DNA of 36,370 nt from assembly GCA_017445365.1 (NCBI GenBank), contig JAFSUH010000183.1, forward strand, positions 1 to 36,370. The letters are read 5' to 3'. Of the stretch, positions 6,256 to 23,475 are shown piece after piece. Numbering within the stretch: position 1 is the first letter of the stretch; every line of letters begins with the position of its first letter. The notes beneath the pieces were generated by a model. That model saw nothing but the letters and a program-made list of their open reading frames with translations, had not been told where the DNA came from and did not search any database. This DNA comes from Kiritimatiellia bacterium (GTDB lineage Bacteria > Verrucomicrobiota > Kiritimatiellia > CAIQIC01 > Lenti-01). Both the position numbers and the translations under genes were made by a program.

Positions 6256-7416
6256 ATGGCATACCGCATCAACCTCAACGGCATTTCCTTCCACGGCAAG
6301 GGCGCCATCGCCGAAATCCCCGCCCTTCTCAAGGCCGGCGGCTTCAAGAAAGTCTTCGTCGCCACCGACCCCGGACTTCTCGCCATCGGCACGACGGCGA
6401 AGGTGACCGACCTCCTCAAGGCCGCGAAAATCAAGTTCGACCTTTTCAGCGACATCAAGCCCAACCCGACCATCGAAAACGTCAAGGCGGGCGTCAAGGC
6501 GTTCAAGGCGTCGAAGGCGGATTGCATCGTGGCGATCGGCGGCGGCTCCGCGATGGACACGGCGAAAGCCGTCGGCATCATCGCCACCAACCCCAAGTTC
6601 TCCGACGTGCGCTCCCTCGAAGGCCTTTCGCCCACGAAGAAGCCCGCGGTCTTCACCATCGCCGTCCCCACCACCTCCGGCACCGCGGCGGAAGTGACCA
6701 TCAACTACGTCATCACCGACCGCGCGAAAGACCGCAAGTTCGTCTGCGTGGACCCGCACGACATCCCGCAGATCGCCGTTGTCGATTCCGGCATGATGCT
6801 TTCGATGCCCGACAAGCTCGCCGCCGCGACCGGCATGGACGCTTTGACGCACGCCATCGAAGGCTACGTCACGCGCGCCGCCAACGACATGACCGACATG
6901 TTCCACTTGAAGGCCATCGAGCTGATTGCCGCGAACCTCCGCCAATCCGTCAACGGCAAGGGCGCGAAAAAGGAAGCGGCCCGCGAGAAGATGGCCCTCG
7001 CCCAGTACATCGCGGGCATGGGGTTCTCCAACGTCGGCCTCGGCATCGCCCACTCCATGGCGCATCCGCTCTCCGCGTTCTACGACACGCCGCACGGCGT
7101 CGCCTGCGCGATTCTCCTCCCGCCCGTCATGAAGTTCAACGCCCCCGCCACGGCCAGGCGCTACATCGACATCGCCCGCGCCATGGGCGTCAAGGGCGCC
7201 GACGCGATGCCCCTGGCGAAGGCCCGCAAGGCCGCCTGCGAGGCGGTGGCGAAGCTCGGAGCCGACGTCGGCATCCCGCCGGACTTGAAGGGCATCGTGC
7301 AGGCGAAGGACATCCCCTTCCTCGCGCATTCGGCTTACGTCGATGCGTGCCGTCCCGGCAACCCGCGCGACGTCACCGAAGAGGAAATCGCAAAGCTCTA
7401 CAAGTCCTTGATCTGA
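6256..7416 (+). CDS. fucO: Lactaldehyde reductase (iron-containing alcohol dehydrogenase)
   Basis: AAGGAG RBS. The segments PNPTIENV, AIGGGSAMDTAKAVGII, DVRSLEGLSPT, PTTSGTAAEVTINYVITD, KFVCVDPHDIP, GMDALTHAIEGY and HSMAHPL..YDTPHG closely follow FucO. Confidence 0.92.
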   Translation: MAYRINLNGISFHGKGAIAEIPALLKAGGFKKVFVATDPGLLAIGTTAKVTDLLKAAKIKFDLFSDIKPNPTIENVKAGVKAFKASKADCIVAIGGGSAMDTAKAVGIIATNPKFSDVRSLEGLSPTKKPAVFTIAVPTTSGTAAEVTINYVITDRAKDRKFVCVDPHDIPQIAVVDSGMMLSMPDKLAAATGMDALTHAIEGYVTRAANDMTDMFHLKAIELIAANLRQSVNGKGAKKEAAREKMALAQYIAGMGFSNVGLGIAHSMAHPLSAFYDTPHGVACAILLPPVMKFNAPATARRYIDIARAMGVKGADAMPLAKARKAACEAVAKLGADVGIPPDLKGIVQAKDIPFLAHSAYVDACRPGNPRDVTEEEIAKLYKSLI

Positions 7417-7581
7417 TTTCCCTTCGCCCCTCTCCCGGCGCGCGGCCTTGCCACGCGCCTTTTTCGTTGTCCGCGCCGGTGCGCCGGTGGCACGTCGCTG
7501 GCGGCGCTTCCGCTTCGAAGGCGTTTTTCCGATGTCTGGCACGATTCAAAGGCGGGGCGGGACGGGGACCCCGGCGGGCCG

Positions 7582-7631
7582 TTTGCCAATGTTTGGCAAA
7601 TTCGGCCCGTTTTTGCCAAACGTTGGCAAAA
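7582..7631. repeat. Paired palindrome element (REP-like), copy 2, between convergent fucO and vsr
   Basis: TTTGCCAATGTTTGGCAAA (7582-7600) and TTTTTGCCAAACGTTGGCAAAA (7610-7631). The linker resembles the reverse complement of the copy 1 linker. Confidence 0.85.
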
Positions 7632-7648
7632 CGCCTTCCGGGCGTTTT

Positions 7649-8119
7649 TCAATTCCCGGCCTTGGCCGCGAACCGGCGGAGGCGGGCGTCCAGCCATTCC
7701 AGCGTTTTGTCCCGCCGCTTGCCTTCGAGCCCGCAGGTCCAAAGCACCACGACGCCCCACCCTTCCTCCCGCCAAAGCGCCTCGTGCCGTTCGTCCCGCC
7801 GCACGTTCGCGCGGAACTTCGCGTTCCAGAACGCCCGATTCGTTTCCGGCGTCGTCGCTTGGGGGCAGAAGGCCGTCCAGACGAGCTTCCGCCCGTCCCA
7901 CTCCCAGCCGTGCCGGTGCCAGAAGCACCCGCGGATTTCGATCAAGGTACGCGCCCGCGGCACCACGATGTCCGGCCGCCCCGTGAAGCGCCGGTCGCAG
8001 GTACGGAACCGCCACCCCCTCGCGTGCAGGAACTTCCGCACGAGCAGCTCCGGCTTCGTGTCCCGCGACCGGATCGCCGCCATCATCCGGCTCCTCGTCT
8101 CCCGGCTCACCGTGTCCAT
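7649..8119 (-). CDS. vsr: Very-short-patch repair endonuclease
   Basis: MDTVSRETRSRMMAAIRSRDTKPELLVRK, GRPDIV, IEIRGCFWHRH, FWNAKFRANVRRD and GWGVVVLWTC are Vsr signatures. The same cluster carries a C5 MTase. Confidence 0.9.
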   Translation of the reverse strand: MDTVSRETRSRMMAAIRSRDTKPELLVRKFLHARGWRFRTCDRRFTGRPDIVVPRARTLIEIRGCFWHRHGWEWDGRKLVWTAFCPQATTPETNRAFWNAKFRANVRRDERHEALWREEGWGVVVLWTCGLEGKRRDKTLEWLDARLRRFAAKAGN

Positions 8120-8121
8120 GG
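8076..8121. repeat. 46-bp direct repeat, copy A (5' end of the intact vsr)
   Basis: 45/46 identical to 9484-9529. Confidence 0.95.
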
Positions 8122-8150
8122 GTTCTTGTCCGGGTTCCGCCCGCGCCCGT

Positions 8151-9362
8151 TCAGTAAAGCAGGCCGAACATCCACAGGGGAATCCGGTGGCGGAATCCGA
8201 TTTCGGTGCCGTCCACGGCGAGGTACCCGTCCGCTTCGTCCGCGATTTGCGCGAACGTCTTGTTCTTGCCCCCGACCTCGAAAACCCACTTGCCGTCCAC
8301 GAGGAAGTCGCCCCGTGCCGGATAGTTCACCGTGCGGACCTGCCGGACTTGGTTGAAGAAGAACGTTTCCCGGATGGTTCCCGCGTCGGGCGAAGGCGAA
8401 AGCGCGTACATGAGGTTCGGGTCGCCGAGATAGATTTTGTCCGGCCGGGAAAGTCCCTTCAGGCTGCGGGCGCGGTCGGAGAGCAGGCCGAGAAGGCCAC
8501 CCCGTTGGAGCGCATCCAGCATTTTCAGCCCCTGGTTCCGGTCCGTTTCCAGTTCGCGGCAGAGTTTTTCGAAATTGACCTTCTGCGGGACCCGTTCCGC
8601 GAGAATCATCAGCATTTTCCGCGCCTTCCGGATGGTCGCGGGGGAGATTTCCTCGACGGCGGGGTAGTCGCTTTCGAGCACCTGCGCGGCCACCTGCGCG
8701 AGCCTTTGGGCGAAGCCGCGCTTCACTTCCTTGAAAAACGGGTAGTACCCGCTTTTGACGTACGCCTCGAACGCGGGGAGCACCCGGATGCGGGAGCAGA
8801 TGCCTTCGGCAATGGGAACGTGTTGTTCGAGGAGCCGTTCGAACGGGACGGCGGGCACGTCGAGACCGCACGCGAAAAGAAGGTATTCCCGGAAGGACAA
8901 GCCCGGCAGGTCGTAGACGATCTGCCGCCGCGAGAGATCGCCCTGCATCCTGTTCAGCCGCAGCATCGAAGAGCCGGTATAGACGAAATGCAAGCCGGGG
9001 AAATCGTCGTACAGGTTCTTGAGAAGCGTCTGCCAGTGGGGGACATGGTGCACCTCGTCGAGGAACACGTGCGTCCCGCCGTGCGTGAAATGGTCTTCCA
9101 CGAGCTCGGCGACGTCGTGCGCGGCGAACCAAAGGGCGTCGAGCGAGGCGTAGAGCGCTTTCGCCGGGTCGGGAAACGCTTCCCGGATGCGCTGGAACAT
9201 GGCGGTCGTTTTTCCGCAGCCGCGGGGACCCCTGATGCAGATCAGCCGGTCGTCCCAGTCGATCGCCGCGACGGGCGCGCGCCGGAACGCCATCGAAACG
9301 GCGGCGATCCGCCGCCGGAAGCTCCGGTCCAGTTTGGCAAAGTCTTTGGTCGATTGTTCCAT
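8151..9362 (-). CDS. AAA_14-type ATP-binding protein with C-terminal DUF4143-like/nuclease-like domain
   Basis: Walker A IRGPRGCGKTT, Walker B FLDEVH, YTGSS, DLSRR, KIYLGDPNL, RETFFFNQ, GDFLVD...FEVGGKNK. Confidence 0.85.
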   Translation of the reverse strand: MEQSTKDFAKLDRSFRRRIAAVSMAFRRAPVAAIDWDDRLICIRGPRGCGKTTAMFQRIREAFPDPAKALYASLDALWFAAHDVAELVEDHFTHGGTHVFLDEVHHVPHWQTLLKNLYDDFPGLHFVYTGSSMLRLNRMQGDLSRRQIVYDLPGLSFREYLLFACGLDVPAVPFERLLEQHVPIAEGICSRIRVLPAFEAYVKSGYYPFFKEVKRGFAQRLAQVAAQVLESDYPAVEEISPATIRKARKMLMILAERVPQKVNFEKLCRELETDRNQGLKMLDALQRGGLLGLLSDRARSLKGLSRPDKIYLGDPNLMYALSPSPDAGTIRETFFFNQVRQVRTVNYPARGDFLVDGKWVFEVGGKNKTFAQIADEADGYLAVDGTEIGFRHRIPLWMFGLLY

Positions 9363-9386
9363 TGCGTTTGTATCCTTGCGAATGCG

Positions 9387-9416
9387 AATTTATGTGATAC
9401 GTCATGCATCCGTCAA
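9387..9416 (-). promoter_or_regulatory. Putative sigma70 promoter for the AAA_14 gene
   Basis: TTGACG-18 nt-TAAATT on the minus strand in an AT-rich gap ~25 nt upstream of the ATG. Confidence 0.4.
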
Positions 9417-9443
9417 CGAAAATTCATGTTTCAAGACACGATT

Positions 9444-9527
9444 TCAAAGGAACAAACCATGTCCGGAAACACGATTCCGGCCTGCCGCCATCATCCGGCT
9501 CCCCGTCTCCCGGCTCACCGTGTCCAT
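9444..9527 (-). pseudogene. Truncated vsr 5' stub (MDTVSRETGSRMMAA, then unrelated sequence and a stop)
   Basis: The first 15 codons duplicate vsr. The ATG lies 9 nt after the stop of the DUF2357 gene. Confidence 0.8.
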
Positions 9528-9529
9528 GG
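9484..9529. repeat. 46-bp direct repeat, copy B
   Basis: 45/46 identical to 8076-8121. Confidence 0.95.
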
Positions 9530-9536
9530 CCGGTTC

Positions 9537-11708
9537 CTACCGCTTCAGCGAAAACAACCAGTATTCCGCGTGTCCCGGCTTCGGATATCCCATCCCGGAG
9601 AGTTTTTCGCGGGAAACCCGTTCCACGCCCGTGATGAAAAACACCTCCACGTCGGCGGTTCTCCTCCCGCGCGGCGGCGCGGCCAACGCCAGGATCCGTT
9701 TCCGCCGGGCGTCCGCCTCCGTCAGGATTCCCTTTCCCTCCGCCTCTTCGCACGGCAGGGGATAGAGCAGGCGCTTTTCCACCCACGCGGTTTTTTCCGA
9801 TTCCGCGCCGTGGCTTGTTCCGTAGAGCGTCAAATCTTCCGCGGCCCCCGCGATGCCGTCGACGAACGCCGACGTTCCCCGTGTCGGGATGGTGCCGTCG
9901 AGGTGGGCGTGCGCGTCCGCCTTCCCGAGGATTCCGCGGATGCACGCTTCCAGCGGCCCGAGATGTCCCGGCAGCAGCGGAACCGCCCCGATGTTTTCCC
10001 GCCGGATCGATTCCGCGTAATCCCCGCAGAGATGCGGCTCCGGCCTGCCCGGATAGAGCACGTAGGCCCCGATGGTTTCGCGTTTCAGTTCCGTCTTCCC
10101 GAGCCGGTAGAGGATGGCGTCCCGGTAGCGGTGCATGTCGTCGATGGCCGCGCGCGGCGAAGCGTCGATTTCCCTCCCGCCTTCCGTCTTCGTCGCGATG
10201 CGGTATTTCGCGTCGAAGAGGTAGGTGAACGTCGATTCCCCGTCGACAATCGACAGCACGATGTCCGGCCGCTGCGGGTTGAGTCCCGCCATCGTCCCGC
10301 CGTCGGCGCACTCCTCCGCCGGGTACGTCTTCTGGTAGGAAAGCAGGCACCGCCGCGACCCGTCCGAAAACGCCACGTCGATCTTGCAGAGCTGGCCGCC
10401 GTCCCCGCTTTCGTCCGTCAGCTCCGGCGCGTCCAGGAGTTCGTCGGGCGAACGGTCCCGCCACTCCTGGCTTTCCGGTTCGCCGAAATGCGCCTTCAGG
10501 ACGTCCCGCATCTTGAGGAAGCACCAGAATTCGTAGAGCGTGCTGATCGGCCGGTATCCGACGTCGATGTCGTCGCCTCCCGGACGGAGCGCCGACTTCA
10601 GTTTCAGCCATGCCGTGAGGATTTGCGCGTATCCCGTGCTTTTCTGCATCACGAGGCTCTGCTGGCGGAACCCCTCGAACCGCGACACGCCCCGGAAGAA
10701 CGGATGCCGCGCCAGCCGTTCCAGCCGCCGCGCCCGTTCGGCGATGCCGTCCTTCCAGCCCTGCGAGACGGCCTCCTCGTCCTCCAGCCGCCCGCCGAAC
10801 TCCCGGAGGCGCCGTTCCAGTTCCCGCAGCGTATGGAGCACGAAGCGGTTTTCCGGCGTGTCGCTCTCCGCTTCCAGCCGTTCCGTACGGAAGAACTCGT
10901 GCGCGCGCCGGTCGCCGTCCAGGCGGTGGAAGCAGGCGGCCAGTTGCGGCGTCCAGCGCCGGATGCGGTCGGCGCGCCGCCAGTCGTCCATCGCCAGATA
11001 CCGCCGGTGGGGATTCCCGGCGATGCGGCGGCAGGCGCCCTCGTAGTAGTCGAACACCTCCAGCAGGATGTCGTACCAGCTTTTCCCGTCCGGTTCGCCG
11101 CCCCGGTCGAGGGCCGCCCCCCAAAACGTCTTGCTGAGGAACGCCCGCACGATGTTCGGCTTTTCCGCGTCGATAGTCCGGACGATTTCCCCGTAGTCGC
11201 GCACCACGTTCATTTTCACGGAAACCACCGTGGATTCCAGCCGCACCGTCCGCTCCGTGCCGTCGTCGAAGGAAACGCGCAGGTCGAGCCGGAACCGCCC
11301 CGGCTCGTTGACGAAGTCCAGCGTCCCGACGAGGACCCCGCCGTCGAAGTTGAAGGCGTCCGCCACGCTGGCCATCCGGTGTTCCACGCGCACGTCCCGC
11401 ACTTTCCGTCCCCCCGCCTCCCCGAAGTCCCCCCGGAAGAAGTAGCGCGTCTCGAAAAACACGGGCAAGGCCTTCACGGGTTCGCCGCCCGCGGCGAATG
11501 CCCGTTCCGGGCCGTCCCCCGCGAAGCGGAACGTGCAGTCGGCGTTCGCGGAATACTCCGTCAAAAGCTTCGACTGGTCCTCCGGGAAATCCTCCAGGAT
11601 GCGCTTCCGGTAGGCCTCCTGTTTGCCGCCGATGTCGCCCCGCACCTTGAGAACGAGCCCGACGGACGGCACCGCCGCCCGGAACACCTCTGTCGCACCC
11701 TGCGCCAT
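9537..11708 (-). CDS. DUF2357 + PD-(D/E)XK nuclease (McrC-like restriction subunit)
   Basis: GTLDFVNEPG, DTPENRFV, LVMQKSTGYAQI and ISTLYEFWCF (DUF2357), then QRPDIVL...LFDAKYR and DDMHRYRDAI (nuclease). Lies downstream of an McrB-like gene. Confidence 0.85.
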   Translation of the reverse strand: MAQGATEVFRAAVPSVGLVLKVRGDIGGKQEAYRKRILEDFPEDQSKLLTEYSANADCTFRFAGDGPERAFAAGGEPVKALPVFFETRYFFRGDFGEAGGRKVRDVRVEHRMASVADAFNFDGGVLVGTLDFVNEPGRFRLDLRVSFDDGTERTVRLESTVVSVKMNVVRDYGEIVRTIDAEKPNIVRAFLSKTFWGAALDRGGEPDGKSWYDILLEVFDYYEGACRRIAGNPHRRYLAMDDWRRADRIRRWTPQLAACFHRLDGDRRAHEFFRTERLEAESDTPENRFVLHTLRELERRLREFGGRLEDEEAVSQGWKDGIAERARRLERLARHPFFRGVSRFEGFRQQSLVMQKSTGYAQILTAWLKLKSALRPGGDDIDVGYRPISTLYEFWCFLKMRDVLKAHFGEPESQEWRDRSPDELLDAPELTDESGDGGQLCKIDVAFSDGSRRCLLSYQKTYPAEECADGGTMAGLNPQRPDIVLSIVDGESTFTYLFDAKYRIATKTEGGREIDASPRAAIDDMHRYRDAILYRLGKTELKRETIGAYVLYPGRPEPHLCGDYAESIRRENIGAVPLLPGHLGPLEACIRGILGKADAHAHLDGTIPTRGTSAFVDGIAGAAEDLTLYGTSHGAESEKTAWVEKRLLYPLPCEEAEGKGILTEADARRKRILALAAPPRGRRTADVEVFFITGVERVSREKLSGMGYPKPGHAEYWLFSLKR

Positions 11709-11711
11709 GAC

Positions 11712-13244
11712 TCAAGTCTTCACGAACCACCCGCCCGTCCGCTTGGAACCGCGATATTCAATTTTGTTATGAGAGGCCAAACGGCCTAAAACGCGGCGGA
11801 TAGAGCGGGTGGAGGTCTTGATTTCGAGAAAAATAGCTTCCAGTTTTATTCCGGGGTGATTGTGAATCACTTCCAAAACGGCCTGATCTTGAGCATCTGT
11901 ATCGTATGGCTTCACTTGGTTTATCTGGCCACTCTTAGCCTTTATTGGGCCACTTTCCGGATTTATCTGGCCACTTTCCGCGTTTATTTGGCCACTCTCG
12001 GAGTTTATCTGGCCACATTTTGCTTTATCGTGCCACTTTGTCTGGCCACTTTCGCCCTGCGCCATGACGGTGACACGAAACTCCGTCCGCTTGTTGACGT
12101 CGAACTGCGCGGGAGGATTGCCGTTTTTCTGCAACTCCCGGTTGGCCTTGGCGATTCCGCGGTTGTATTTGTTCACCATGCCCAGAACCTTCATCGCCTC
12201 GGCCAGAAGCGGATTCCGATAATCGTTGACGAAAGGGAAATTCTCCGGCTTGGCCCGCCCGTAAAGTCCGCCGGCGTTGGAAATCTCGATCCGGTTCTTC
12301 TCGTATTCGTAGAACTTGACGGGAGCGTTCCCCAGAAAATAGTCCCGGTGGATGATGGCGTTCATCAAAAACTCGCGCAACGCCCAGGCGGAATACCGGG
12401 AAACGGGGTCTTCCCTCATGGCGGTGGCCAGAACGGGACGCGTCGCCGCCGGCCCCGTCTTGACGAACACGTCCAGTTCCTGAACCATTCTCACCAGCGG
12501 CCCGCGGAAAACGTTTTCCTGAAGCACGTCTCCGGCATTGTCCGCCCCGGCGAACTTGACGTATTGCACGTAAGCCGACGGGATGAAGCGTTCCGGATGC
12601 TTCGCAAACAAAAGAACACCCAGATTTGTCGGACACCCCTTTTCTGGGCTGTAAAACCTCAAGGCGCTCATCTGCTCGATGGTCGTGCGGTCGTCGTCCT
12701 CGATGACCTGGGCGTCGATGGCTTTGGGCAGATAGAAGGCTTTGAAGAGCGAGATGTCCAAATCGGTCATCTTCGTGCGTTCGCAAGGAAGCTCCTCGTC
12801 CCTTGCTCCGAATCGCGCACGGCGTTCTGTGAGAATGTGGATGTCATCCTCCCGTGCCTTGCACCTCCGCGGTCCCAGTCGAATCCAGACCTCCCCGTTG
12901 TAGCGGATGGGCGGATAGGCCGAAGGAAACACCTTAATGACGATGACATCGCCCTCCTTCAACGAAAACTTCTCCATGGACATCGACGGCGGCGGCAAAA
13001 GGTTGCCGTCCGTCTTCAGCCCGCCCAACGACGCCCACCGCTCGTCGTCGATGCGCCGCCCGGAAATCTTTCCGTCGTCATCGACGCCGAGAAGCAGATA
13101 CCCGGCCTCCTCGCTGCCCGAAATGTCGTTGGCGAACGCGCAAATCGCCTGCCCGATTTTGTCCGCCTTGTCGAATGCACGGGTGCGCTCGACGTGTTCG
13201 TCCTCGAACGCCCCGATCAGTTGCCTGAGTTCCTTTTCGTCCAT
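11712..13244 (-). CDS. Schlafen/AlbA_2 domain protein with HATPase_c_4 (RecG-C-like) domain and C-terminal winged HTH
   Basis: EDEHVERT...ICAFAND...GYLLLGVDDDG (AlbA_2); ALREFLMNAIIHRDY, IEISNAGGL, YRNPLLAEAMKVLGMVNKYNRGI (HATPase_c_4); IEYRGSKRTGGW (wHTH end). Confidence 0.85.
   Translation of the reverse strand: MDEKELRQLIGAFEDEHVERTRAFDKADKIGQAICAFANDISGSEEAGYLLLGVDDDGKISGRRIDDERWASLGGLKTDGNLLPPPSMSMEKFSLKEGDVIVIKVFPSAYPPIRYNGEVWIRLGPRRCKAREDDIHILTERRARFGARDEELPCERTKMTDLDISLFKAFYLPKAIDAQVIEDDDRTTIEQMSALRFYSPEKGCPTNLGVLLFAKHPERFIPSAYVQYVKFAGADNAGDVLQENVFRGPLVRMVQELDVFVKTGPAATRPVLATAMREDPVSRYSAWALREFLMNAIIHRDYFLGNAPVKFYEYEKNRIEISNAGGLYGRAKPENFPFVNDYRNPLLAEAMKVLGMVNKYNRGIAKANRELQKNGNPPAQFDVNKRTEFRVTVMAQGESGQTKWHDKAKCGQINSESGQINAESGQINPESGPIKAKSGQINQVKPYDTDAQDQAVLEVIHNHPGIKLEAIFLEIKTSTRSIRRVLGRLASHNKIEYRGSKRTGGWFVKT
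11920..12053. repeat. In-frame 21-nt tandem repeat (ESGQINx) in the AlbA_2 protein linker
   Basis: Units with a TTTATCTGGCCAC-like core start at 11920, 11941, 11962, 11983 and 12004, with degenerate units beyond. Confidence 0.85.
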
Positions 13245-13259
13245 ACCCGTTCCCTTTCC

Positions 13260-14816
13260 TTACGGCCAAAACGTCAGATATTCGTCCGGGCGGGCGAGAA
13301 TCGCCTCCATCATCTTCGCGCTCATGCCCTCCGCCGGAACCTTGTCCTTGAGGCCCGGCAGGTTCTTTTCCCCGCCTTCGCCCTTGACCTTGTGCCCGTT
13401 GAAGAGGACATCGACGATTCTCCGCTCCCCGTGGATGCGGGGCAGGAGCTTCATCAGCACCACGTGGTCGAGCGCCTTGGCCGCGAATGCCTTTTTCGCC
13501 GCGTCCCCGGCCGCCGCCGTGTCGAATCCCTCCAGCTTCGCCAGCGCCGCTTCGTAGAGCGCGTATTCGTTCGCGAACCGGTAGGCCACGACGAAGGCCG
13601 TGTTCGCCAGCGGCTCGTTGATGCCGTCCAGGAGGGCGCTTTCGATTCCGCCCACCGCGCCGCGCACGCCGCCGTCGAGGAAGAAGCGGATGCCGTCGTC
13701 GTCGAGCAGTTCCTCTTCGGACGGCTTCCGGACGTTTGCCATGCCGCCGAAATCCGCTTCGGTCATGAGCAGCGTCATCGCCCGGTCGAGGACCTTGCGG
13801 GAGAACTGGCACGTCGTCTCGTCCATGTTGACGGTGCCGACCACGAACAGGTTCTTCGGGATGGTCAGCCCGTGCGCGGCGATCCATTCCGCCGCCTCGA
13901 CGGATTCGGCCCCTTTCATGACCTGCCCGAGGAACTCCGGGTCCGCTTCTTCCCCAGACCGCTCCGTTTCCACCAGCGGGTCGGTGAGCCAGACGCCGTT
14001 TTTCTCCTCCATGCTCTCGATGGCGCTCAGGTATTCGGCGAAATATTGCTCCACCGGTGCCAGGTTCATCTCGTCGAGGCAGACGAAGAACGGCGTCCCG
14101 GGATGGGCATGGGCCTTGCAGAGGAACGAGACGAACGGCGTGTTGACGAAGTGCCGCCCGCCCATTTCGGAGAAATACCCGAGAAGGTCGGACGAATCGT
14201 GCCAGTTGGGCTTCACCTGCACCATGCAGTAGTTGCCCGGGGCCGTCCGCCCCTCTCCTTCCGCCGCCAGCGCCTCGTCGTTGCACGTCATGTAGGCGAG
14301 CCGCCGCACCAAGCGGCTCTTGCCGGTCCCGGAATGCCCCGCGAGGATGGCGAACGGCTTGGTCCTGAGCGCCGCCGCCAGCCGCTGCAGCATCCCGTCG
14401 CCGCCGAACGCATCCGCCAGCGACCGGGCCCCGTGCTTTTGCGCCGCCTGTGCATCGACCCGTTTCCATTGCTTTTTCATGATTTCCTCCCGGGTTGCTT
14501 TGTCTCCTACATCCGCATGGACAACGGGAATCTGTCCCAAAACCATCTTTGCCATTTTTGCCAGAGTCCCCGCATAACCGTATTCAAATCGGTCAATCTC
14601 CGTTTTTCCGACGAGTTTTTCTCTCGCGGTTTGAGACGGCATGTCGGGAGATTCCCTGTATGCCTCCACCCATTCAGCGAGCAAAGCCTTGGAAATCGTG
14701 CGGACGCCAACCGCACCGTTCGAAACCGACTTTACGCTGTAGCAAAGCCTGTCTTCATCCAAAACAACCAGCGAATCATCCTGGGTTTTGTCGCCAACGC
14801 TCAATTCTTTTTGCAT
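13260..14816 (-). CDS. McrB-like AAA+ NTPase (DUF2357-associated type) with an unassigned N-terminal domain
   Basis: Walker A ILAGHSGTGKS, VQVKPNWHDSSDLLGY, Walker B CLDEMNLAPVEQYFAEYLS, signature GTVNMDETT..FSRKVLDRA, and MKLLPRIHG. Confidence 0.88.
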   Translation of the reverse strand: MQKELSVGDKTQDDSLVVLDEDRLCYSVKSVSNGAVGVRTISKALLAEWVEAYRESPDMPSQTAREKLVGKTEIDRFEYGYAGTLAKMAKMVLGQIPVVHADVGDKATREEIMKKQWKRVDAQAAQKHGARSLADAFGGDGMLQRLAAALRTKPFAILAGHSGTGKSRLVRRLAYMTCNDEALAAEGEGRTAPGNYCMVQVKPNWHDSSDLLGYFSEMGGRHFVNTPFVSFLCKAHAHPGTPFFVCLDEMNLAPVEQYFAEYLSAIESMEEKNGVWLTDPLVETERSGEEADPEFLGQVMKGAESVEAAEWIAAHGLTIPKNLFVVGTVNMDETTCQFSRKVLDRAMTLLMTEADFGGMANVRKPSEEELLDDDGIRFFLDGGVRGAVGGIESALLDGINEPLANTAFVVAYRFANEYALYEAALAKLEGFDTAAAGDAAKKAFAAKALDHVVLMKLLPRIHGERRIVDVLFNGHKVKGEGGEKNLPGLKDKVPAEGMSAKMMEAILARPDEYLTFWP

Positions 14817-14889
14817 TCAAGGCCCTCAGGTTGTTTTTGACACAAACGACATTCTCAACCCCAAAAACACCTCTCCCCCAGCCTGAATA

Positions 14890-15438
14890 TCACTTCCGCA
14901 ACTTTTTCGCAGTATGGACAGAAGCCGCAAGCAACTTGGCAATCTCTTTCCTCCACCAGTCAATCCCCCGTTGCAACCACTCTCGGCAATCGTCACATCC
15001 CCACTTTTCGGTATCGGCCATGGGCAAATAGGTGTTTTCCCAGTTGACAGCATGTTCTTGATCGACCATCACCCACATTTCATCGACATAGGAAGGTCTC
15101 ACCTCGTAAAAACAGGCATCATTCTGCTCTCCATGTATGAACCTGTGATAAACTAAGTAATCGTCACTATCGCATTCATCGTAACTTGTCTGCTCGCTAT
15201 ATTGCTGCTTTAGGGTGGCAAGCTCGGCACGGCGCTTTGTCCAAAGCGGATTGATGGCAGGATATTGTTGGATATCGTATTTCAACAGCACATCTTCGAC
15301 ACTGCGCAACGCAAGCAGACAAAATGTCCAATAAATCCTGAATAGTTGTTTGTCTTCGTGCGGCACGTTCTCCAAAAATCCCATAGCCCGCTGACAATCA
15401 TCAAGAACTTGGGTGGCTTTCAATTCTGTTGCAATCAT
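14890..15438 (-). CDS. Hypothetical helical protein, possibly HEPN-like
   Basis: CAGGAG RBS, co-oriented within the cluster, predicted helical. FRIYW..CLLALRSVEDVL...FIHGEQN recalls HEPN-like families but lacks a canonical RxxxxH. Confidence 0.65.
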   Translation of the reverse strand: MIATELKATQVLDDCQRAMGFLENVPHEDKQLFRIYWTFCLLALRSVEDVLLKYDIQQYPAINPLWTKRRAELATLKQQYSEQTSYDECDSDDYLVYHRFIHGEQNDACFYEVRPSYVDEMWVMVDQEHAVNWENTYLPMADTEKWGCDDCREWLQRGIDWWRKEIAKLLAASVHTAKKLRK

Positions 15439-15508
15439 GACATCTCCTGAGTCCTGTGGTCATTTTTCATTGGCAAACTTGATTCAGTAAGCTTCAGATA
15501 AAACTTTG

Positions 15509-16543
15509 TCAGAAAAGTAACTTTAAAATCGCTTCTCCTTGTGCCTTCGCCATCGGAGGAGGAAACGCCTCGCCAATCATGGATGCGACTTTCCCGAAGC
15601 CCAATTCGTGGGGAAACCGATATGTCTTTGGAAAACCTTGGAGTATCAGGGCTTCTAGCATGTTGATGCCCCGATTTTCGGATGGATGGATGAAACGCCC
15701 CTTTGACGGGTTACCGCATCCTCGCGTGATGGTAGGCGCGACATCATCCCATGCCATCCGCCCGTAAACATCCCGGAAGCCTTGTGGATAACGTTTATGG
15801 CATCCCAGCGCCATGGCTTCTGGCAAATCCGACCTGTTCTCCTTGATATGCTCAATGCGGGCCTGCACGACTGATGAAAAATGTTGCCGAAGTCCGGCAA
15901 GATGCCGCGCCGATTCCCATCCCTTGCCTGAAGGAATTTCAATGTTTTTGATGGCATCCGCAACGGTTATCCGCAAAGGACTCTTTTGGGGGAGCACAGG
16001 CCTTTTCTTGAGCCGGCATCCAATCAAAATCATGCGTTTGCGCCGTTGGGGCACATTGAAGTCCTTGGCATCGAGAACTCCATCCACAAACTCATAGCCC
16101 CATCTCTCGGCGAGATGTTGTTTGAAAAGTGCCAATCGACTGTCCTTCAACAATCGGGGGACGTTCTCGATCAAGATGCATTTGGGATGGAACGCCTCGA
16201 CAAACCGCTCCATTTGGAAGATGAGTTCGTTCCTCGGATCGTTCGCAATCTCGCCGTTGTGGGTACGGATGGAAGAAAACCCCTGGCACGGGGGACATCC
16301 CGCCAGCAAATCCAGCCGACCGCGACGCAGACCGAGTTTTTTCTTCACCTCCAAGGGATTGACCTTGCGAATGTCATCCAAAAGAAGCGTATTGGGATGA
16401 TTCAACTTGTAGGTATCCCGGGCCTCCTGCCGGATTTCGCAACACGCCAAAACCTTGAACCCTGCATCCTCGAGCCCCTGACTCAATCCGCCGCAACCGG
16501 AGAATAAATCAATGGCCAAATGCCGCTTACTTTTATTCTTCAT
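15509..16543 (-). CDS. DNA (cytosine-5)-methyltransferase
   Basis: Motif I DLFSGCGG, IV GCPPCQGFS, VI ENV, VIII VPQRRKR, IX-X EALILQGFP...IGEAFPP. Start taken at ATG 16543, which overlaps the end of the REC gene. Confidence 0.93.
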   Translation of the reverse strand: MKNKSKRHLAIDLFSGCGGLSQGLEDAGFKVLACCEIRQEARDTYKLNHPNTLLLDDIRKVNPLEVKKKLGLRRGRLDLLAGCPPCQGFSSIRTHNGEIANDPRNELIFQMERFVEAFHPKCILIENVPRLLKDSRLALFKQHLAERWGYEFVDGVLDAKDFNVPQRRKRMILIGCRLKKRPVLPQKSPLRITVADAIKNIEIPSGKGWESARHLAGLRQHFSSVVQARIEHIKENRSDLPEAMALGCHKRYPQGFRDVYGRMAWDDVAPTITRGCGNPSKGRFIHPSENRGINMLEALILQGFPKTYRFPHELGFGKVASMIGEAFPPPMAKAQGEAILKLLF

Positions 16544-18026
16544 CGGCAGGCTTCTCCCCGCGAAGGTCGCGTGACAGCGAAGGTTGATCGACCCCCACAC
16601 GCCGTATGCGTGACATATAACGACTCACTAGACGATTCAGAATATCTTGGCGGAACACTCCGGCAGGAGTTATTGGCGCCTTTAATTCATCTTTCTGTTT
16701 TGCCACCATGGCAGTTGCCTCATGCCAGAAAACGTACGCTTGTCCTTGAAAGCGCAATGTTGTCTTGCCTCTTGGATCCCTTTTGAGCTGATCATAATCT
16801 GGAAAATTAACACCATTTTCATGGTGCGAAAGCATCTTTTTCCCACGCAAGAACAGGAAAGATTTGGCACGCACGCAATCACAAGCTGCAGAAATGCAAA
16901 CGGCAATGTCGTCGCTGTTGTCAAACATGTTGCGGTACACTTGTCCCGGGCATACTTTTTGATCTTGCAGTTCACAAGCACTTTTCTTTTCGCAGAATTC
17001 TGTATAGGCCTCAATTTCCGAAACAAAACCTGCAACACACGGGATATTCCTTGCCTTTGACAATTGTTTGTACTGATTTGCCGTCAACTTTGACTGAGGC
17101 ACGTCACAAACGCACTTTCGGACCGAATCCAACAGGCCTTTGATACTTGAATCTGTGGTCGACAACAGTTGCTCCAAATTGTCCGTAGCGGCATTTGACG
17201 GCTTCAACATGTCCATGTCCAAGGAATCAAGTGGCAAAGCCAAAACAAGAGAGGCCAAATCTTCTAACAAGTTTGACGTCAAGCATTCCTGGATCTCCTC
17301 ACAACACTTACTCTCAGTATCTGTATCACCCGATTTCCACAAATTGCCGCGTTCCACCAAAATTCCGCTATCCGTTTTTTCTGGAAGCGCAGCAAGCCAC
17401 CGCGGGGCCAGGTCTTTGATCCGCCCTGCAATTTCCAATGCAACCACATGAAGGTAATCCGGACAGACTCCAAGCAAAGCCGCATGTATCCGAGTTATCA
17501 AATTCTCTTCTCTGAATTGGTTCTTTTGCAAGCTCAACAAGAACTGACCTGAATTGTTTTTCCACAGCCCATTTGACGGCTCTTGCTTGAAGGAAGGATC
17601 CAAATTTGCATAGTTATTCTTTGATAGTTCCTTCCTCGACAGGATTACAATAAACCTGAATCCTTTATCGGAACCCAATAGCTCCTTAATGATTTTCTCC
17701 GCGAAATCACTGGAATCCGTAGTTCCCAACATCCAATCGATAATAACGACATCAGCTTGTCGGGCGAGTTGGCAACATGAACGAATTGCTCCGTCGATCT
17801 CTGGCCGATCTGCATACGGATCGGCGACAGGCCTTGCTTCGGGGAACCCCATCATGTGGCATAGCAAGCCGGCCTTGGTGAATTCATTGAACTTGTCTTG
17901 GAAAATAGGGTTTGTCCCTTCTTCAGAAAGACCTTTGTCCAAATGGATTTCATCGTCGATCCACAAAACGGACTGGCAATATTGCCGTATGATTCGTTCT
18001 CGGATTGCTTGTGCTTTTTCGTCCAT
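16533..18026 (-). CDS. Response-regulator receiver domain protein with a long non-HTH C-terminal region
   Basis: SVLWIDDE acidic pocket, VVIIDWMLG phospho-acceptor Asp, IVILS. C-terminal CISAACDCVR. Starts 13 nt after the kinase gene. Confidence 0.8.
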   Translation of the reverse strand: MDEKAQAIRERIIRQYCQSVLWIDDEIHLDKGLSEEGTNPIFQDKFNEFTKAGLLCHMMGFPEARPVADPYADRPEIDGAIRSCCQLARQADVVIIDWMLGTTDSSDFAEKIIKELLGSDKGFRFIVILSRKELSKNNYANLDPSFKQEPSNGLWKNNSGQFLLSLQKNQFREENLITRIHAALLGVCPDYLHVVALEIAGRIKDLAPRWLAALPEKTDSGILVERGNLWKSGDTDTESKCCEEIQECLTSNLLEDLASLVLALPLDSLDMDMLKPSNAATDNLEQLLSTTDSSIKGLLDSVRKCVCDVPQSKLTANQYKQLSKARNIPCVAGFVSEIEAYTEFCEKKSACELQDQKVCPGQVYRNMFDNSDDIAVCISAACDCVRAKSFLFLRGKKMLSHHENGVNFPDYDQLKRDPRGKTTLRFQGQAYVFWHEATAMVAKQKDELKAPITPAGVFRQDILNRLVSRYMSRIRRVGVDQPSLSRDLRGEKPADEE

Positions 18027-18039
18027 TTTTCACCCAGCT

Positions 18040-20976
18040 TCAAAGAATCTTTGACAAAACAAAATTGGCACCTGTCAACCCTCCAAGTTCGGGTTCGTCT
18101 GCCAAGATAAGGTCAAAGCCAAATTCCTTTAATGACTCTCGGGCAATGTACAAACCAAGGCCCTGTCCACCAGGACGTCGGGAAAAGCCCGGTTCGAAAA
18201 TGTATGGAGCATCCATCTTTGAAACTCCAGGGCCAGAATCAGACAGTACCAATGAGCCGTTAGCTGACACCGAGAGTCTTACAGCAGGGATTAGTGTTCC
18301 CTGTTTCGCCCAATAAAGGGAGTTTATGAAAAGGTTGTGGATTGCACCAAGGAACACAGGCCGATTCAATCCGGACCACTGGGCTAATTTAAACGAGTCA
18401 GTAAATTCACCATACACCAATTCAAGTTCCTTGACGAATCTGCGTTTCAAAAAATCCTCAATTTGGGAGCCTGTAAGACTTTCGCTCTTTGAACTACGAC
18501 GGCGTATGAGTGGATCCATCAAACGTATACGCTCTTCAATGATACCAAACGAATCCTTCAGTGCTTGAAGGCGCGTCAAATCCTCTCCCGAAAGTCGCTT
18601 GGAAAGTTTCTGGATAGTATCACGAACAATATCCACTTGCTTCTCATACTCATGCGTTGCCGTCTCGAATACGAGACCCAACTGCGCAGCAGTGACTATG
18701 TGGGAATGTTGCTCGCGCAACATCTGCAACTCGCGCGTCTGATCGGAGAGAACAAAGACGCCATTTTCGCCATCCGTAAGATGTTGCAAATTTGCACAAA
18801 GAGTTTTAAGCCGTGGAAGCACATTAGACTCCAACTCGTCAACCTCAGCTTGGATTGCCATTTCAAAAATTTCGACAGCTTGGCCCGAGCAATCCGCTGC
18901 CACTATCCGAGGCGTCAAACCATTCAAGTAATTGTCGCGAACCAGCTTTAAATTTCCGATTTCCCTTTCTACATAATCGTTTAATGCAGGAGATAGTTTT
19001 TCCACCTGCTTGAATGGTTCTGCTACTAGATTTGATATCCTTTTACGAACGAGTTCATCAACATTCTGTAATCGAACCAAGAAATGTCGTTCACGTTCTT
19101 TCATTGGGCGGACATGCGCCGCCATTTTTTGAAAATCTTGTTCTTCGCGGGCAATCTCTCCTTGCAGATTTGTGATTTGAACAGCACGTTTGGAAATGTA
19201 ATCTGTAATAATTTCCCAAGCATCACCGCATATGACAACACCATCTGGTGGTTCAGCAACGGAGGTTTGCAACTCGTTCAGGTATTCACGCAGTTTTTCA
19301 ATGGCCACCTCGCACTCGTGCAATCCTTCAGCAGAAATCGCATTCATTGTACGATTGAGCAACTGGCGCGAATGCCTAACGGCAACAACAATTGTCTCTT
19401 TGAAATTATCTAGCCATCCACGGGCATAACGTATCCTGGTTTGATACTCTTCCTTTTCCCGCTCAAGTCGCGCCTGTGCAGCCGCTTTTTTCTTCTCTTC
19501 ACGCAAGCGTCGTTTATCTTCACGATCCGCCTTGCGACCGAGGAAACGGTCTGCAATATCCACAAATACATCTTCAAGCCAGAAACGAAGGCCTCGACTT
19601 GCACCATTAACGATGAAGCCCTCCCGTCCCGCTTTTTCCTTGATTTGGTTACTATCTGCTGGAAGAAAAACCCCGCCGAACATCCGCAAGTGCGAAAAAT
19701 AATAGCGGCCAGCATTCTTGAGACGCCGTTGTTCAAAGCCCGCAAAATCGCTGTCCGGTGCACCATATGGTTGAACATGGACGCCGCCTTTATAAATGGA
19801 AAAGCCACCAGCATACTGCAAACGCATATCCATTTGACGATGCAAATCTGGTGGTAAAAATGAAATTGCAGCCGTTCCTTGCACATATCCAATTTCGATT
19901 AAGAACCGGCCCGGCGTTCGCATGCCCAGCGGCAACCTCTTCAATTGTCGACTGTATCTTATTTTTTCGGATTGATAATTGGCGATATATCCCTTTGCAA
20001 ATCCATTCTCGGAAACTTCAATGCGGATATGGTGATCGCATTTCTCGAAATCGTCAGGACTCCAATAACGGTATTTCTTATCCTTGCGAACAGGCGTTCC
20101 GTTTTTGAAGACTTCAATACGGAACGGCCTGACTTCTTCAGAATGGAATGGGTCCCAAAAACTGGAAAAAGCATTGACCGACTTCAGTTCGTAAGCGGAA
20201 GCGTCTTCCAACTCGTCCGTTCTCACAGGCGAAGTTCTGAATAAATCGCGGAGATCTTCGTTCGTGTGTACGCACAGGAACGTTGTTCCCATTTCAAAAT
20301 CACATTTCAATTGGCTCAATATCTGTTCCGATGGAATTGTAATATCGGACTGTAGCTCACGGCGAAGCGATTCGTCCCATGTCTCGTCGTGAAGGATGCC
20401 ATCGACAAGAGGGGACTGTCTCAACGACGAAAAAACGGTCTCAAATTCCTCTGGACTTGGGCCATGGTCAAACTCGGCACATGGAATGGGCAAATCCGTA
20501 AGCAATTTGGTCGGATGCCGGAAAAGATGCCAGTGGACGATGCACAACGTCCCACGTTTTTTGGATCCTTCACCCCAAACCGACCAAAGGACGGTCATTC
20601 GACCCAGGGAAGCGACCGAGAGTCTGCCGATTCCTTTTTCGCCATACGTTGTTTTGAGCCATTCCTTCTGCTCTGGCGTCGCGAATTCAGTCCATCCGTC
20701 ATCTTCTTTCTTGGCGAATTTCGATTCGGTGGCAAGAACAAGCCATTTCCCGACCACATCTTCCTTGCAACGCATTCCAAGACCATCGTCGTGAATGGAC
20801 AAAAAACCGATGCCGTTGCTGTGGTCTGCATCGAAATAATCAACTTGAACACGTCTTGCTCCCGCATCAAGAGCGTTTTTGAAGAGTTCACCGGTAGCCG
20901 TTGGTGCATCGGCGATTTGCTGCCTCCCCAACAAATCAATTACACGGGCTCTGCTTCTGAAGTTTTCAATTGCCAT
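18040..20976 (-). CDS. MORC-like GHKL ATPase - coiled coil - histidine kinase fusion
   Basis: N-terminal FRSRARVIDLLGRQQI, ELFKNALDA, DDGLGM, GEKGIGRLS; central charged helical region; C-terminal H-box ATHEY, N-box HNLFINS, DSGPG, IFEPGFS, GQGLGL. ATG 20976 preferred over GTG 20985. Confidence 0.88.
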   Translation of the reverse strand: MAIENFRSRARVIDLLGRQQIADAPTATGELFKNALDAGARRVQVDYFDADHSNGIGFLSIHDDGLGMRCKEDVVGKWLVLATESKFAKKEDDGWTEFATPEQKEWLKTTYGEKGIGRLSVASLGRMTVLWSVWGEGSKKRGTLCIVHWHLFRHPTKLLTDLPIPCAEFDHGPSPEEFETVFSSLRQSPLVDGILHDETWDESLRRELQSDITIPSEQILSQLKCDFEMGTTFLCVHTNEDLRDLFRTSPVRTDELEDASAYELKSVNAFSSFWDPFHSEEVRPFRIEVFKNGTPVRKDKKYRYWSPDDFEKCDHHIRIEVSENGFAKGYIANYQSEKIRYSRQLKRLPLGMRTPGRFLIEIGYVQGTAAISFLPPDLHRQMDMRLQYAGGFSIYKGGVHVQPYGAPDSDFAGFEQRRLKNAGRYYFSHLRMFGGVFLPADSNQIKEKAGREGFIVNGASRGLRFWLEDVFVDIADRFLGRKADREDKRRLREEKKKAAAQARLEREKEEYQTRIRYARGWLDNFKETIVVAVRHSRQLLNRTMNAISAEGLHECEVAIEKLREYLNELQTSVAEPPDGVVICGDAWEIITDYISKRAVQITNLQGEIAREEQDFQKMAAHVRPMKERERHFLVRLQNVDELVRKRISNLVAEPFKQVEKLSPALNDYVEREIGNLKLVRDNYLNGLTPRIVAADCSGQAVEIFEMAIQAEVDELESNVLPRLKTLCANLQHLTDGENGVFVLSDQTRELQMLREQHSHIVTAAQLGLVFETATHEYEKQVDIVRDTIQKLSKRLSGEDLTRLQALKDSFGIIEERIRLMDPLIRRRSSKSESLTGSQIEDFLKRRFVKELELVYGEFTDSFKLAQWSGLNRPVFLGAIHNLFINSLYWAKQGTLIPAVRLSVSANGSLVLSDSGPGVSKMDAPYIFEPGFSRRPGGQGLGLYIARESLKEFGFDLILADEPELGGLTGANFVLSKIL

Positions 20977-21845
20977 ATTGCACACCCTGTTATTTCCGCT
21001 TTTTTAGCGGGACAACGGAACACATCGGAATCAGTTGGGAGGAGAAAACCGGCATGGGCACAACATCCTGTGGAAGAAGCCTTGGCAACCTAGCATCCCG
21101 ACCCCTTCCCCGGCAATCACCGATTCCCTTGCCGATAGCGCCGAGGAGAGTGGAGGGCGTTGGAAAATGCTTTGCCAACAAGGGGGAACGGCATGAGGAA
21201 GGCCTTTTGCGAAAGCGGACAAGGACGAACCCGCGCTTGCGCGGGGTTCCGATGCCGTTTTTTCGCGTTTTTTTCGGTTTGGGAGGCCGTTTTTTGCCGA
21301 TTTTTTCGAAATTTCGTAAATTTTTGGACGATTTTTTGGCGTTTTGTCGATTTTTTGGAAAATTTCGGCAAATTTCGGCAAATTTTTCCCGTTTTCAATC
21401 CCTTTTCGGCCATTTACCTGCCAAAATGCCGTCCCCCCTCCCCGCACGCTCCCCCTTCGCCCTCTCAATCCCGCGGGCGGGGTTCCCGGGACGGCCTTTT
21501 CGGTCGCTTCCCGGGCCAGCACGGCCCTTCCGGCGGCTTCGTCGGTGTTTCCTGGCACGTTTTTCCCGAAAAACGCTTTCTTTTGCCGCATCCCCGCTTG
21601 GCAACTTCGCCCATCGGGAGGCTCCCCGCCTACGGCAAATTTGGAATCGAAATTTGCCGCCAGTCCGACGCCAACTGTCACGACAAAAACACGCCAAACG
21701 TCACAATGGAGGCCGAACAATCCCGTTTCCGAGCGGCCATTAGGCGACTTTTTTCCATCAGTTCCGTAAAATCGGCGTCCTTTTTTACATTTGTGCCGTA
21801 AAAAAGGCGGGACATTCCGTCCGGGAATGTGCTAGTTTCATCGCC

Positions 21846-23051: not shown

Positions 23052-23282
23052 AAACGGGATGATTGGTTGCCCGCGGTGGGATGCCGGATTTGCCGGAGGC
23101 ATGGCCGGAATCGGGAGCCGGGAACGGTTCGTTCACTTCGAAAATGCGCTTCCGGCAAAGCAGGGCGCGACAAAACGCGATTTCTGGAGTTGCGGCAAAA
23201 ATGCAGCACAAATTCCCCCGTTTTCGGCGAAAAAGGGGGAAAGAAGAGGAGGGACGGAAGCGGGAAAAGAGACTTAAAAATA

Positions 23283-23308
23283 AAAAATCCCCGGGAAACG
23301 GGGCTTTT
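23283..23308 (-). terminator. Probable terminator downstream of the tRNA pair
   Basis: CCCCG/CGGGG stem flanked by an A-run on the left and a T-run on the right, immediately 3' of tRNA-Arg. Confidence 0.5.
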
Positions 23309-23311
23309 CGA

Positions 23312-23388
23312 TGGTGTGCCTGGCGGGGATCGAACCCACAACCTTCAGCTCCGGAGGCTGACGCTCTGTCCAATTGAGCTACAGGCAC
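23312..23388 (-). tRNA. tRNA-Arg(CCG)
   Basis: GTGCCTGTAGCTCAATTGGACAGAGCGTCAGCCTCCGGAGCTGAAGGTTGTGGGTTCGATCCCCGCCAGGCACACCA: cloverleaf, anticodon CCG, encoded CCA. Confidence 0.96.
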
Positions 23389-23390
23389 GT

Positions 23391-23464
23391 TGGTTGTCCC
23401 ACATGGATTCGAACCATGACTAACAGATCCAGAGTCTGCTGTGCTACCGTTACACCATGGGACA
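23391..23464 (-). tRNA. tRNA-Gln(CTG)
   Basis: TGTCCCATGGTGTAACGGTAGCACAGCAGACTCTGGATCTGTTAGTCATGGTTCGAATCCATGTGGGACAACCA: anticodon CTG, encoded CCA. Confidence 0.96.
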
Positions 23465-23475
23465 GACGCCCCGGA

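Follow-up and report, generated by a model that had tools for sequence, protein, structure and literature searches.

Histidine kinases of the HEF_HK family (PF19191) and their Response_reg_2 partners (PF19192) were defined by Bellieny-Rabelo, Pretorius and Moleleki (2021; PMC8011034), who reported that the kinase and receiver genes are linked in 91.6% of 644 genomic regions, that a C5 cytosine DNA methyltransferase (C5 methylase) gene lies adjacent, and that a gene for the very-short-patch repair endonuclease Vsr is frequent near the pair; that the pair signals to, or controls, restriction-modification (R-M) systems was put forward by these authors as a speculation. We found no experimental study of this family in the literature. 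The nearest experimentally tested analogue, compared by description, is Ambrosia (10.1101/2025.09.30.679545), a cluster reported to encode an XRE regulator, an N6-adenine methylase, a HATPase kinase, a protein with receiver (REC) and winged helix-turn-helix (wHTH) domains, and a type IV HNH nuclease; it defends P. aeruginosa, the receiver substitution D60A abolishes the defence, and reporters of the cluster are induced on infection. GHKL proteins of the paraMORC type have been described in R-M operons alongside genes of cytosine methylases and of Vsr (Iyer 2008, PMC2292703), and fused directly to HEPN RNase domains (Ymh) in R-M neighbourhoods (Anantharaman 2013, PMC3710099). The DefensePredictor paper (2026) lists a HATPase+REC system only as predicted, not as validated. 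Here we describe a kinase-receiver-methylase locus (henceforth the trio) followed by McrBC-type genes in a Kiritimatiellia bacterium; the window analysed is an entire contig of 36,370 bp (JAFSUH010000183.1) from a metagenome-assembled genome of 2.3 Mb in 248 contigs that is 65.8% complete. What this analysis adds is a predicted toxin-fold output domain at the end of the receiver protein and the mosaic anatomy of the locus.

The trio is encoded on the minus strand by the genes of a kinase-like protein of 981 aa (18040-20985, likely start at 20976; Pfam HATPase_c_3, HEF_HK and HATPase_c), a receiver protein of 497 aa (16533-18026; Pfam Response_reg_2) and a C5 methylase (15509-16543; PF00145, 187.8 bits; TIGR00675, 162 bits; PADLOC MTase_II/DruM), and it belongs to the HEF_HK/Response_reg_2 family, already described computationally. 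The kinase and receiver genes are separated by 13 nt, and the methylase ATG overlaps the end of the receiver gene by 11 nt, as had been stated in an initial annotation made from the sequence alone. That annotation also tied the kinase and receiver to C5 methylation and R-M, which is reasonable, but is already in print (PMC8011034), and it knew of no experimental characterization of the full combination; we found none in the literature either, although the core family has been catalogued computationally. Since both the family and the speculation on R-M have been published, the core of the locus is in large part one that was already on record.

The receiver protein carries Response_reg_2 with 43.8 bits (cut-off 27), and in an alignment of 29 sequences the phosphoacceptor candidate D97, which had been noted as intact, is invariant together with K168, while D24-D25 are conserved in at least 90%. 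Its homologues are conserved over the full length (86 matches, of which 85 contain PF19192). The AlphaFold2 (AF2) model, with a predicted local distance difference test (pLDDT) of 78, falls into three parts: the REC domain (residues 15-188; Z up to 9.8 to response regulators by VIA), a helical part (190-346) and a C-terminal domain (356-477), with pLDDT 75-93 over residues 360-470. For the C-terminal domain, Foldseek reported E. coli MazF (prob 1.0, E 2e-4; TM score by target 0.62-0.75 among the matches listed) and VIA reported S. aureus MazF (Z 9.6; root-mean-square deviation 2.7 over 103 residues), MazF-mt3 (Z 9.4), MazF-mt1 (Z 8.8) and CcdB (Z 8.7). An independent model of the receiver in the Atlas has clusters of PemK_toxin (TM 0.74) and CcdB (TM 0.77) as structural neighbours. 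The residues invariant in the C-terminal domain (C377, C382-D383-C384, R459, R465, R469 and R476; 29 sequences) are candidates for a role in its function. The modelled architecture of the receiver, i.e. a REC domain, a helical linker and a C-terminal domain of predicted MazF/CcdB fold, appears to be new: no paper that we found mentions a toxin-like fold at the end of a Response_reg_2 protein, or joins a receiver domain, a fused MazF toxin domain and two-component signalling. The initial annotation had described a receiver without HTH output; in agreement with it, no HTH or wHTH was found by Pfam or among the matches listed in the fold searches, which barely tested the middle part, but the protein is not devoid of an output, as its C-terminus is a conserved domain of predicted MazF/CcdB fold.

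The C-terminal domain is a family-wide feature of Response_reg_2 proteins. A search with its sequence profile returned 318 representative proteins (E<=1e-3), and in nearly all of them the match is located C-terminally, the protein being 460-650 aa long. A Pfam scan covering 40 of the 150 listed matches identified an N-terminal Response_reg_2 in 20/20 proteins of 534-651 aa and in one protein of 380 aa, and no Pfam family in 19/19 short proteins (140-334 aa), which may be fragments. The Atlas feature search with receiver residues 350-480 returned unnamed clusters only. A complex prediction for two copies of the C-terminal domain scored 0.15 (mark: 0.42), which speaks neither for nor against dimerisation, and no antitoxin-like gene was recognised at the locus by Pfam.

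The kinase-like protein contains HATPase_c_3 at residues 29-154, HEF_HK at 768-829 and HATPase_c at 882-968 (36.4, 27.2 and 42.6 bits, all above the cut-offs). In an alignment of 17 homologues (25-83% identity) the N-terminal GHKL motifs are invariant (E33/N37/D40, D66-G68-G70, G115-R121), and so are the boxes of the kinase core (H778-E779, N884/N888, G918-P919, F930, G940/G942/G944), with the exception of the third Gly of the G1 box. The AF2 model (pLDDT 74.5) comprises a GHKL domain followed by a transducer-like beta domain, a stretch of long helices that spans ~360 residues, and finally a CA domain; no membrane-like N-terminal part is seen in it. Foldseek matched the model to MORC2/3/4, SMCHD1, TRAP1 and MutL over ~500 columns and to DHp-CA kinases of the ZraS/CpxA type over ~230-260 columns. 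Pfam, the invariant motifs and the fold comparisons all agree with the description, given in the initial annotation, of a MORC-like GHKL ATPase joined through a helical stretch to a kinase with intact H, N and G boxes, and the model points to a soluble paraMORC-type GHKL ATPase and a DHp-CA kinase core joined by an extended stalk of helices. A 2026 preprint describes PF19191 as having no conserved T/N four residues past the His, a residue tied to phosphatase activity; in our alignment the window kinase has K four residues after H778, and the replacement of the phosphatase-linked T/N by K would fit a one-way switch.

The trio forms part of a cluster of nine genes, all on the minus strand with short gaps, which spans positions 7649-20985, and all genes named in the initial annotation are indeed present there at the coordinates that it gave. 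Downstream of the methylase lies an open reading frame (ORF) of 182 aa (14890-15438) that has no Pfam, PADLOC or NCBIfam match and only unnamed clusters in the Atlas feature search. It is followed by the gene of a McrB-like AAA+ NTPase of 518 aa, a variant with a short N-terminal domain (13260-14816; Pfam AAA_5, 28.1 bits, above the cut-off; PADLOC PDC-M26A, 4e-40), by that of a protein with the Pfam domains SLFN_AlbA_2 and HATPase_c_4 (11712-13244), and by that of a McrC-like nuclease (9537-11708; Pfam DUF2357 and PDDEXK_7, 112 and 100.6 bits), DUF2357 being the N-terminal domain of McrC (PMC10542128). An ATPase with AAA_14 and DUF4143 (8151-9362; Pfam, PADLOC candidate PDC-S01) lies between the DUF2357 gene and the gene of Vsr (7649-8119; PF03852, 90.7 bits, cut-off 27; TIGR00632, 108.2, cut-off 97.85). 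The earlier calls of McrB-like, Schlafen-like, DUF2357 nuclease and Vsr genes agree with these matches; what had been overlooked is the AAA_14/DUF4143 gene, the ~300 residues of the receiver beyond REC, and a step in base composition. The NCBIfam McrB equivalog scores only 23.6 bits on the McrB-like protein (cut-off 637). A truncation of the McrB N-terminus was considered and rejected: homologues of 515-521 aa cover 99-100% of McrB residues 1-140, and the recurrence of the short N-terminus elsewhere identifies it as a natural variant. MADS was likewise rejected as an assignment, the sole mad match in PADLOC being a weak one of mad8 (4.4e-5) on the McrB-like protein, with none on the other nine proteins scanned. 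The genome carries two further C5 methylase genes (G000, contigs C139 and C109), so that the Vsr of the window need not belong to the trio methylase and may serve any of the three.

The base composition and the comparison with a sister locus reveal that the locus is a composite of modules. The trio and the 182-aa ORF (~14.5-21 kb) have 46-50% GC, the McrB/Schlafen/McrC side (8-14.4 kb) has 57-67% GC, with the step at ~14.4-14.5 kb, and the remaining contig has ~65-73% GC except for a low-GC CRISPR array region at its far end; the short N-terminus of McrB is encoded by DNA of ~50% GC. L021, an independent metagenome contig, is arranged in the same way and has the same step in GC content, and the possibility that the step stems from a chimeric contig was therefore rejected. 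At the DNA level the window and L021 are 65.6% identical in the kinase gene, 81.5% in the methylase and the 182-aa ORF, and 83.9% in the C-terminal 410 aa of McrB, the SLFN gene and McrC; the corresponding proteins are 46% (receiver; L021:9992-11458), 67% (kinase), 87% (methylase) and 93% (McrB) identical. The divergence of the kinase-receiver pair suggests cassette exchange or diversifying selection. L021 furthermore has 2.2 kb with no counterpart in the window, which comprise a second C5 methylase (25% identity to the trio methylase) and a different, ~300-aa-longer McrB N-terminus; no remnant of such a second methylase was found in the window. The SLFN_AlbA_2+HATPase_c_4 insertion between McrB and McrC is shared by L021 (79% identity). 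The 182-aa ORF has homologues in the same place only in L019 (63%) and L021 (81%) among the surveyed loci, and accompanies the low-GC module as an accessory gene in some of the relatives. A scan for promoters and terminators over 7000-23500 gave no excess over shuffled sequences (5 vs 5.5 and 27 vs 24.1, respectively) and hence no evidence either way as to operon structure.

To survey the neighbourhoods of relatives we collected 4 loci from species genomes, 16 from metagenomes and 6 from a further 400 genomes of the phylum; in addition, 2 plasmid loci were examined over their whole extent. The family is present in 7/401 genomes of the phylum, the window's own included, and in 0/8 of the same taxonomic family. 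Among the 7 loci of the close clade whose sequence extends 5 kb or more past the methylase, 4 have McrB and DUF2357 downstream of the trio (L002, L021, L027, L030), and in 3 of these (L021, L027, L030) another C5 methylase precedes McrB, while in L002, as in the window, the trio and McrB have no second methylase between them. The other three encode GmrSD and a further methylase (L001, L029) or a further methylase and unknown genes (L025); two shorter close loci have NgoFVII (L023) and EcoRII with Vsr (L017). McrB/DUF2357 was found in 0/7 distant loci, by tblastn and by Pfam, and in 0/2 plasmid loci. The trio of L014, a complete genome, lies among housekeeping genes only, and that of L003 has only Vsr (Pfam) and integrase-type or mobile-element genes beside it; the 13-kb contig L012 has an integrase and a Vsr match by tblastn only, L015 has HNH_2 and Vsr, L016 has Mrr and Shedu-like genes, and L004 an Eco57I-type gene. 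In L013 (G267:C1:302500-322499) the trio, in the order methylase-kinase-receiver, separates HsdS from HsdR within an R-M operon of type I, and RhuM and an NTase/HEPN-like pair are encoded nearby. A Rhizobium plasmid (H1) carries kinase-receiver-methylase-Vsr followed by IS66, and a Pseudoalteromonas plasmid carries methylase-kinase-receiver with no nuclease listed in the PLSDB gene tables, which are incomplete. A match on a Pseudomonas syringae plasmid (H10) was discarded as a 237-nt remnant with fragmentary methylase ORFs beside IS3. In the published supplement to the 644 regions DUF2357 is mentioned once, HNH_2 82 times, Vsr 38 times and EcoRII-C 26 times (counts of terms, not of regions); the single DUF2357 row is that of Prevotella sp. 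HUN102, where it is accompanied by AlbA_2 and HATPase_c_4. The McrBC neighbour is common in this clade, which stems largely from gut and rumen metagenomes, and is not a trait of the family, because it is absent from the 7 distant and 2 plasmid loci and has only one mention in the supplement.

We lean towards reading the locus as a composite defence island, in which a self-contained module (Module A, ~14.5-21 kb, low GC) is formed by the kinase, the receiver and the translationally coupled C5 methylase, followed by the 182-aa accessory ORF, and in which the phosphorelay would gate not McrBC but the toxin-fold domain that the receiver itself carries. The McrB-like, Schlafen/AlbA_2 and McrC-like genes (Module B) would be a separate restriction module, with the AAA_14 gene and Vsr as further neighbours. 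According to this composite-island reading, the methylase would mark the host's own DNA; the MORC-like clamp would sense a DNA state, e.g. unmodified invading DNA, and drive the autophosphorylation of H778; the phosphate would pass from H778 to D97 of the receiver; and the C-terminal MazF/CcdB-fold domain would be released or assembled, causing growth arrest through RNA cleavage or gyrase poisoning. The domains, motifs, folds, gene linkage and mosaic structure are as described above, and it is from these that we infer the sensing, the phosphotransfer and the toxicity. The trio unites a self-marking enzyme, a clamp-kinase, a receiver and a toxin-type fold and occurs where there is no nuclease, hence it can be read as a self-contained module, and its partners vary among the close relatives (GmrSD, EcoRII, NgoFVII or McrBC). 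The paraMORC-HEPN fusions (PMC3710099) provide a precedent, by direct fusion, for the coupling of a clamp to an effector.

Several points weigh against the composite-island reading. The likeness of the receiver C-terminus to MazF and CcdB is at the level of the predicted fold only: residues 190-497 have no Pfam match, and when the C-terminal profile was compared by hhalign with 25 PemK sequences of relatives, the probabilities were 0.6% (local) and 0.1% (global), so low that an assignment to the MazF/PemK family was rejected and the domain is not filed under it. Its toxicity is putative. The helical part (190-346) could be a nucleic-acid-binding output, and the Ambrosia receiver is reported to act on transcription (10.1101/2025.09.30.679545). 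The occurrence of McrB and DUF2357 in 4 of the 7 close loci, in the window and in Prevotella sp. HUN102 goes beyond a single chance juxtaposition; all genes of the window are co-oriented with short gaps, the trio and McrB are not separated by a second methylase in the window and L002, and the window is the whole of a contig from an incomplete (65.8%) genome.

The three alternatives that follow retain real weight. The one that ranks highest is modelled on Ambrosia, and we regard it as unlikely. In it the kinase would sense infection, and the phosphorylated receiver would induce both the methylase and a modification-dependent nuclease encoded nearby, which would be McrBC in the window and GmrSD or HNH_2 at other loci and would cut DNA with the newly made 5-methylcytosine. 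The tested cluster, with its defence dependent on the receiver Asp and its infection-induced reporters, argues for such a mechanism, and the trio often has type IV-like partners, namely GmrSD in L001 and L029, McrBC in 4 loci and HNH_2 in L015, the last with its 82 mentions in the published table. However, the window receiver has no HTH or wHTH in Pfam or among the matches listed in the fold searches (the middle part being barely tested), Pfam finds no XRE gene in the stretch, the methylase is of the C5 and not of the N6 type, and the trio also occurs without any nuclease.

About as improbable is a single LlaJI-like R-M system, which comes closest to the initial annotation: the C5 methylase would protect the host, McrB/SLFN/McrC would restrict foreign DNA, and the kinase and receiver would gate methylation or cleavage. 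The co-orientation and tight spacing of the genes are consistent with it, as are the 4 of 7 close loci and the window with McrB and DUF2357 downstream of the trio, the same gene set, including AlbA_2+HATPase_c_4, in Prevotella sp. HUN102, the lack of another methylase between the trio and McrB in the window and L002, and the short-N-terminus McrB, which recurs elsewhere and is probably intact. The survey of kinase neighbourhoods, proposed in the initial annotation as a check, turned out favourably in the close clade (4/7), but not in the distant (0/7) and plasmid (0/2) loci, and the supplement, with its one DUF2357 term against 82, 38 and 26 for HNH_2, Vsr and EcoRII-C, argues against this reading. 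L021, L027 and L030 have a second methylase of their own before McrB, the GC content of the window changes stepwise, a recombination joint lies within McrB, the trio is found alone, and the receiver has its own conserved C-terminal domain. An integrated system that includes McrB/DUF2357 is thus weakly supported; overall, the observations of the initial annotation are confirmed and its interpretation is supported in part.

That the trio has no part in defence, the MutL-like clamp, the Dcm-type methylase and Vsr being an epigenetic or very-short-patch-repair accessory whose phosphorelay serves housekeeping regulation, is very improbable, since the resemblance of the GHKL module to MutL and MORC, the stimulation of Vsr by MutL and the frequency of Vsr as a neighbour (38 supplement terms; L003, L012, L015, L017 and plasmid H1) are set against a sporadic, mobile-looking distribution (7/401 genomes of the phylum, 0/8 of the family), a location in defence islands beside integrases and IS elements, a fast-diverging receiver gene and a receiver that ends in a toxin-type fold.

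Returning to the composite-island reading, we extend it, more tentatively, to the family: Response_reg_2 proteins might be phosphorylation-gated toxins armed by a MORC-like clamp kinase that reads the methylation state or the presence of foreign DNA, and the trio might be a self-contained, methylation-aware abortive infection system that brings along no restriction nuclease and corresponds, with its two proteins, to the paraMORC-HEPN fusions; it would be widespread across bacterial phyla. We consider this generalization possible, yet rather doubtful as it stands. The kinase-receiver-methylase family is widespread, with 644 regions in the 2021 survey and the 318 representatives of the receiver C-terminal domain detected here. 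If the receiver C-terminus were indeed a toxin-type effector, the family would be a complete sensor-relay-effector immune module tied to 5-methylcytosine and no longer merely a regulator of nearby R-M systems, and would connect MORC-type clamps with His-Asp signalling. For the locus itself, the main outcome is that what looked like one exotic system is made up, mosaic-like, of known kinds.

The surroundings of the island contain further features. The 860 bp upstream of the kinase gene (20986-21845) have no ORF with a family match and an uneven GC content of 43-65%; in L021 and L002 this place is taken by a further C5 methylase gene, which adjoins the kinase gene. A second AAA_14/DUF4143 ATPase gene (21846-23051, plus strand; PADLOC PDC-S01, 1e-55) lies on this opposite side of the island, with the result that two such genes bracket the kinase-to-Vsr stretch; a homologue (53%) is found upstream of the trio of L026. 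The genes of tRNA-Arg(CCG) and tRNA-Gln(CTG) (23312-23464, minus strand) are located directly beyond the island. The flanking host genes encode a 1741-aa CotH-domain protein (822-6047, plus strand) and an Fe-alcohol dehydrogenase (6256-7416) on one side and a GAF+PEP-utilising (PtsP-like) enzyme (23545-25848, plus strand) on the other. A type II CRISPR-Cas locus occupies 30126-36370, with Cas9 of 1247 aa (HNH_4, RuvC_III, Cas9_a), Cas1 (33866-34768), Cas2 (within 34066-35109) and an array in which a 36-nt repeat recurs at least 17 times and which extends from 35213 up to where the contig stops.

Compared with known systems, Module B shares with McrBC and LlaJI the pairing of an AAA_5 McrB-like NTPase with a McrC that combines DUF2357 and a PD-(D/E)xK domain. 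In LlaJI, C5 methylases stand directly in front of McrB, and the sister loci place C5 methylases in the same position; the window differs in that its module has no methylase of its own, the sole methylase being that of the trio, two genes away, in that the SLFN/AlbA_2+HATPase_c_4 gene is inserted between McrB and McrC, and in that its McrB is far below the NCBIfam equivalog cut-off. With the MazF/PemK (PF02452) and CcdB (PF01845) toxins the receiver shares the predicted fold of residues 356-477, but neither sequence or profile similarity nor a recognised separate antitoxin gene, and its domain is fused behind REC and a helical linker.

Ambrosia resembles the window in having a methylase, a HATPase kinase, a REC protein and a nuclease in one cluster, i.e. 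a two-component module tied to R-M-like genes; the two are compared by description only, the window methylase is of the C5 type, and none of the hallmarks of Ambrosia (XRE, N6-adenine methylase, REC with wHTH, type IV HNH) was found by Pfam in 7649-20985. To the family of PMC8011034 the likeness is much closer: the combination HATPase_c_3+HEF_HK+HATPase_c corresponds to its 'group 1', reported as the commonest (174/222), and the predicted-soluble kinase, the adjacent Response_reg_2 gene and C5 methylase, and the nearby Vsr and R-M genes all agree. The order in the window is kinase-receiver-methylase, whereas the methylase comes first in most published rows, the McrB/DUF2357 neighbour of the window appears once in the published table, and no further known domain of the receiver is reported in that paper, while the window receiver ends in a domain of predicted MazF/CcdB fold. 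Finally, the paraMORC operons of Iyer (2008) share with the window a MutL/MORC-like GHKL+S5 module linked to cytosine methylases, Vsr and nucleases, and the Ymh proteins share the coupling of a clamp to a toxin-type domain, which is of the RNase type in Ymh. The fold in the window is predicted to be MazF/CcdB-like and not HEPN, and the coupling that we propose would run not by direct fusion but through a His-Asp relay to a second protein.

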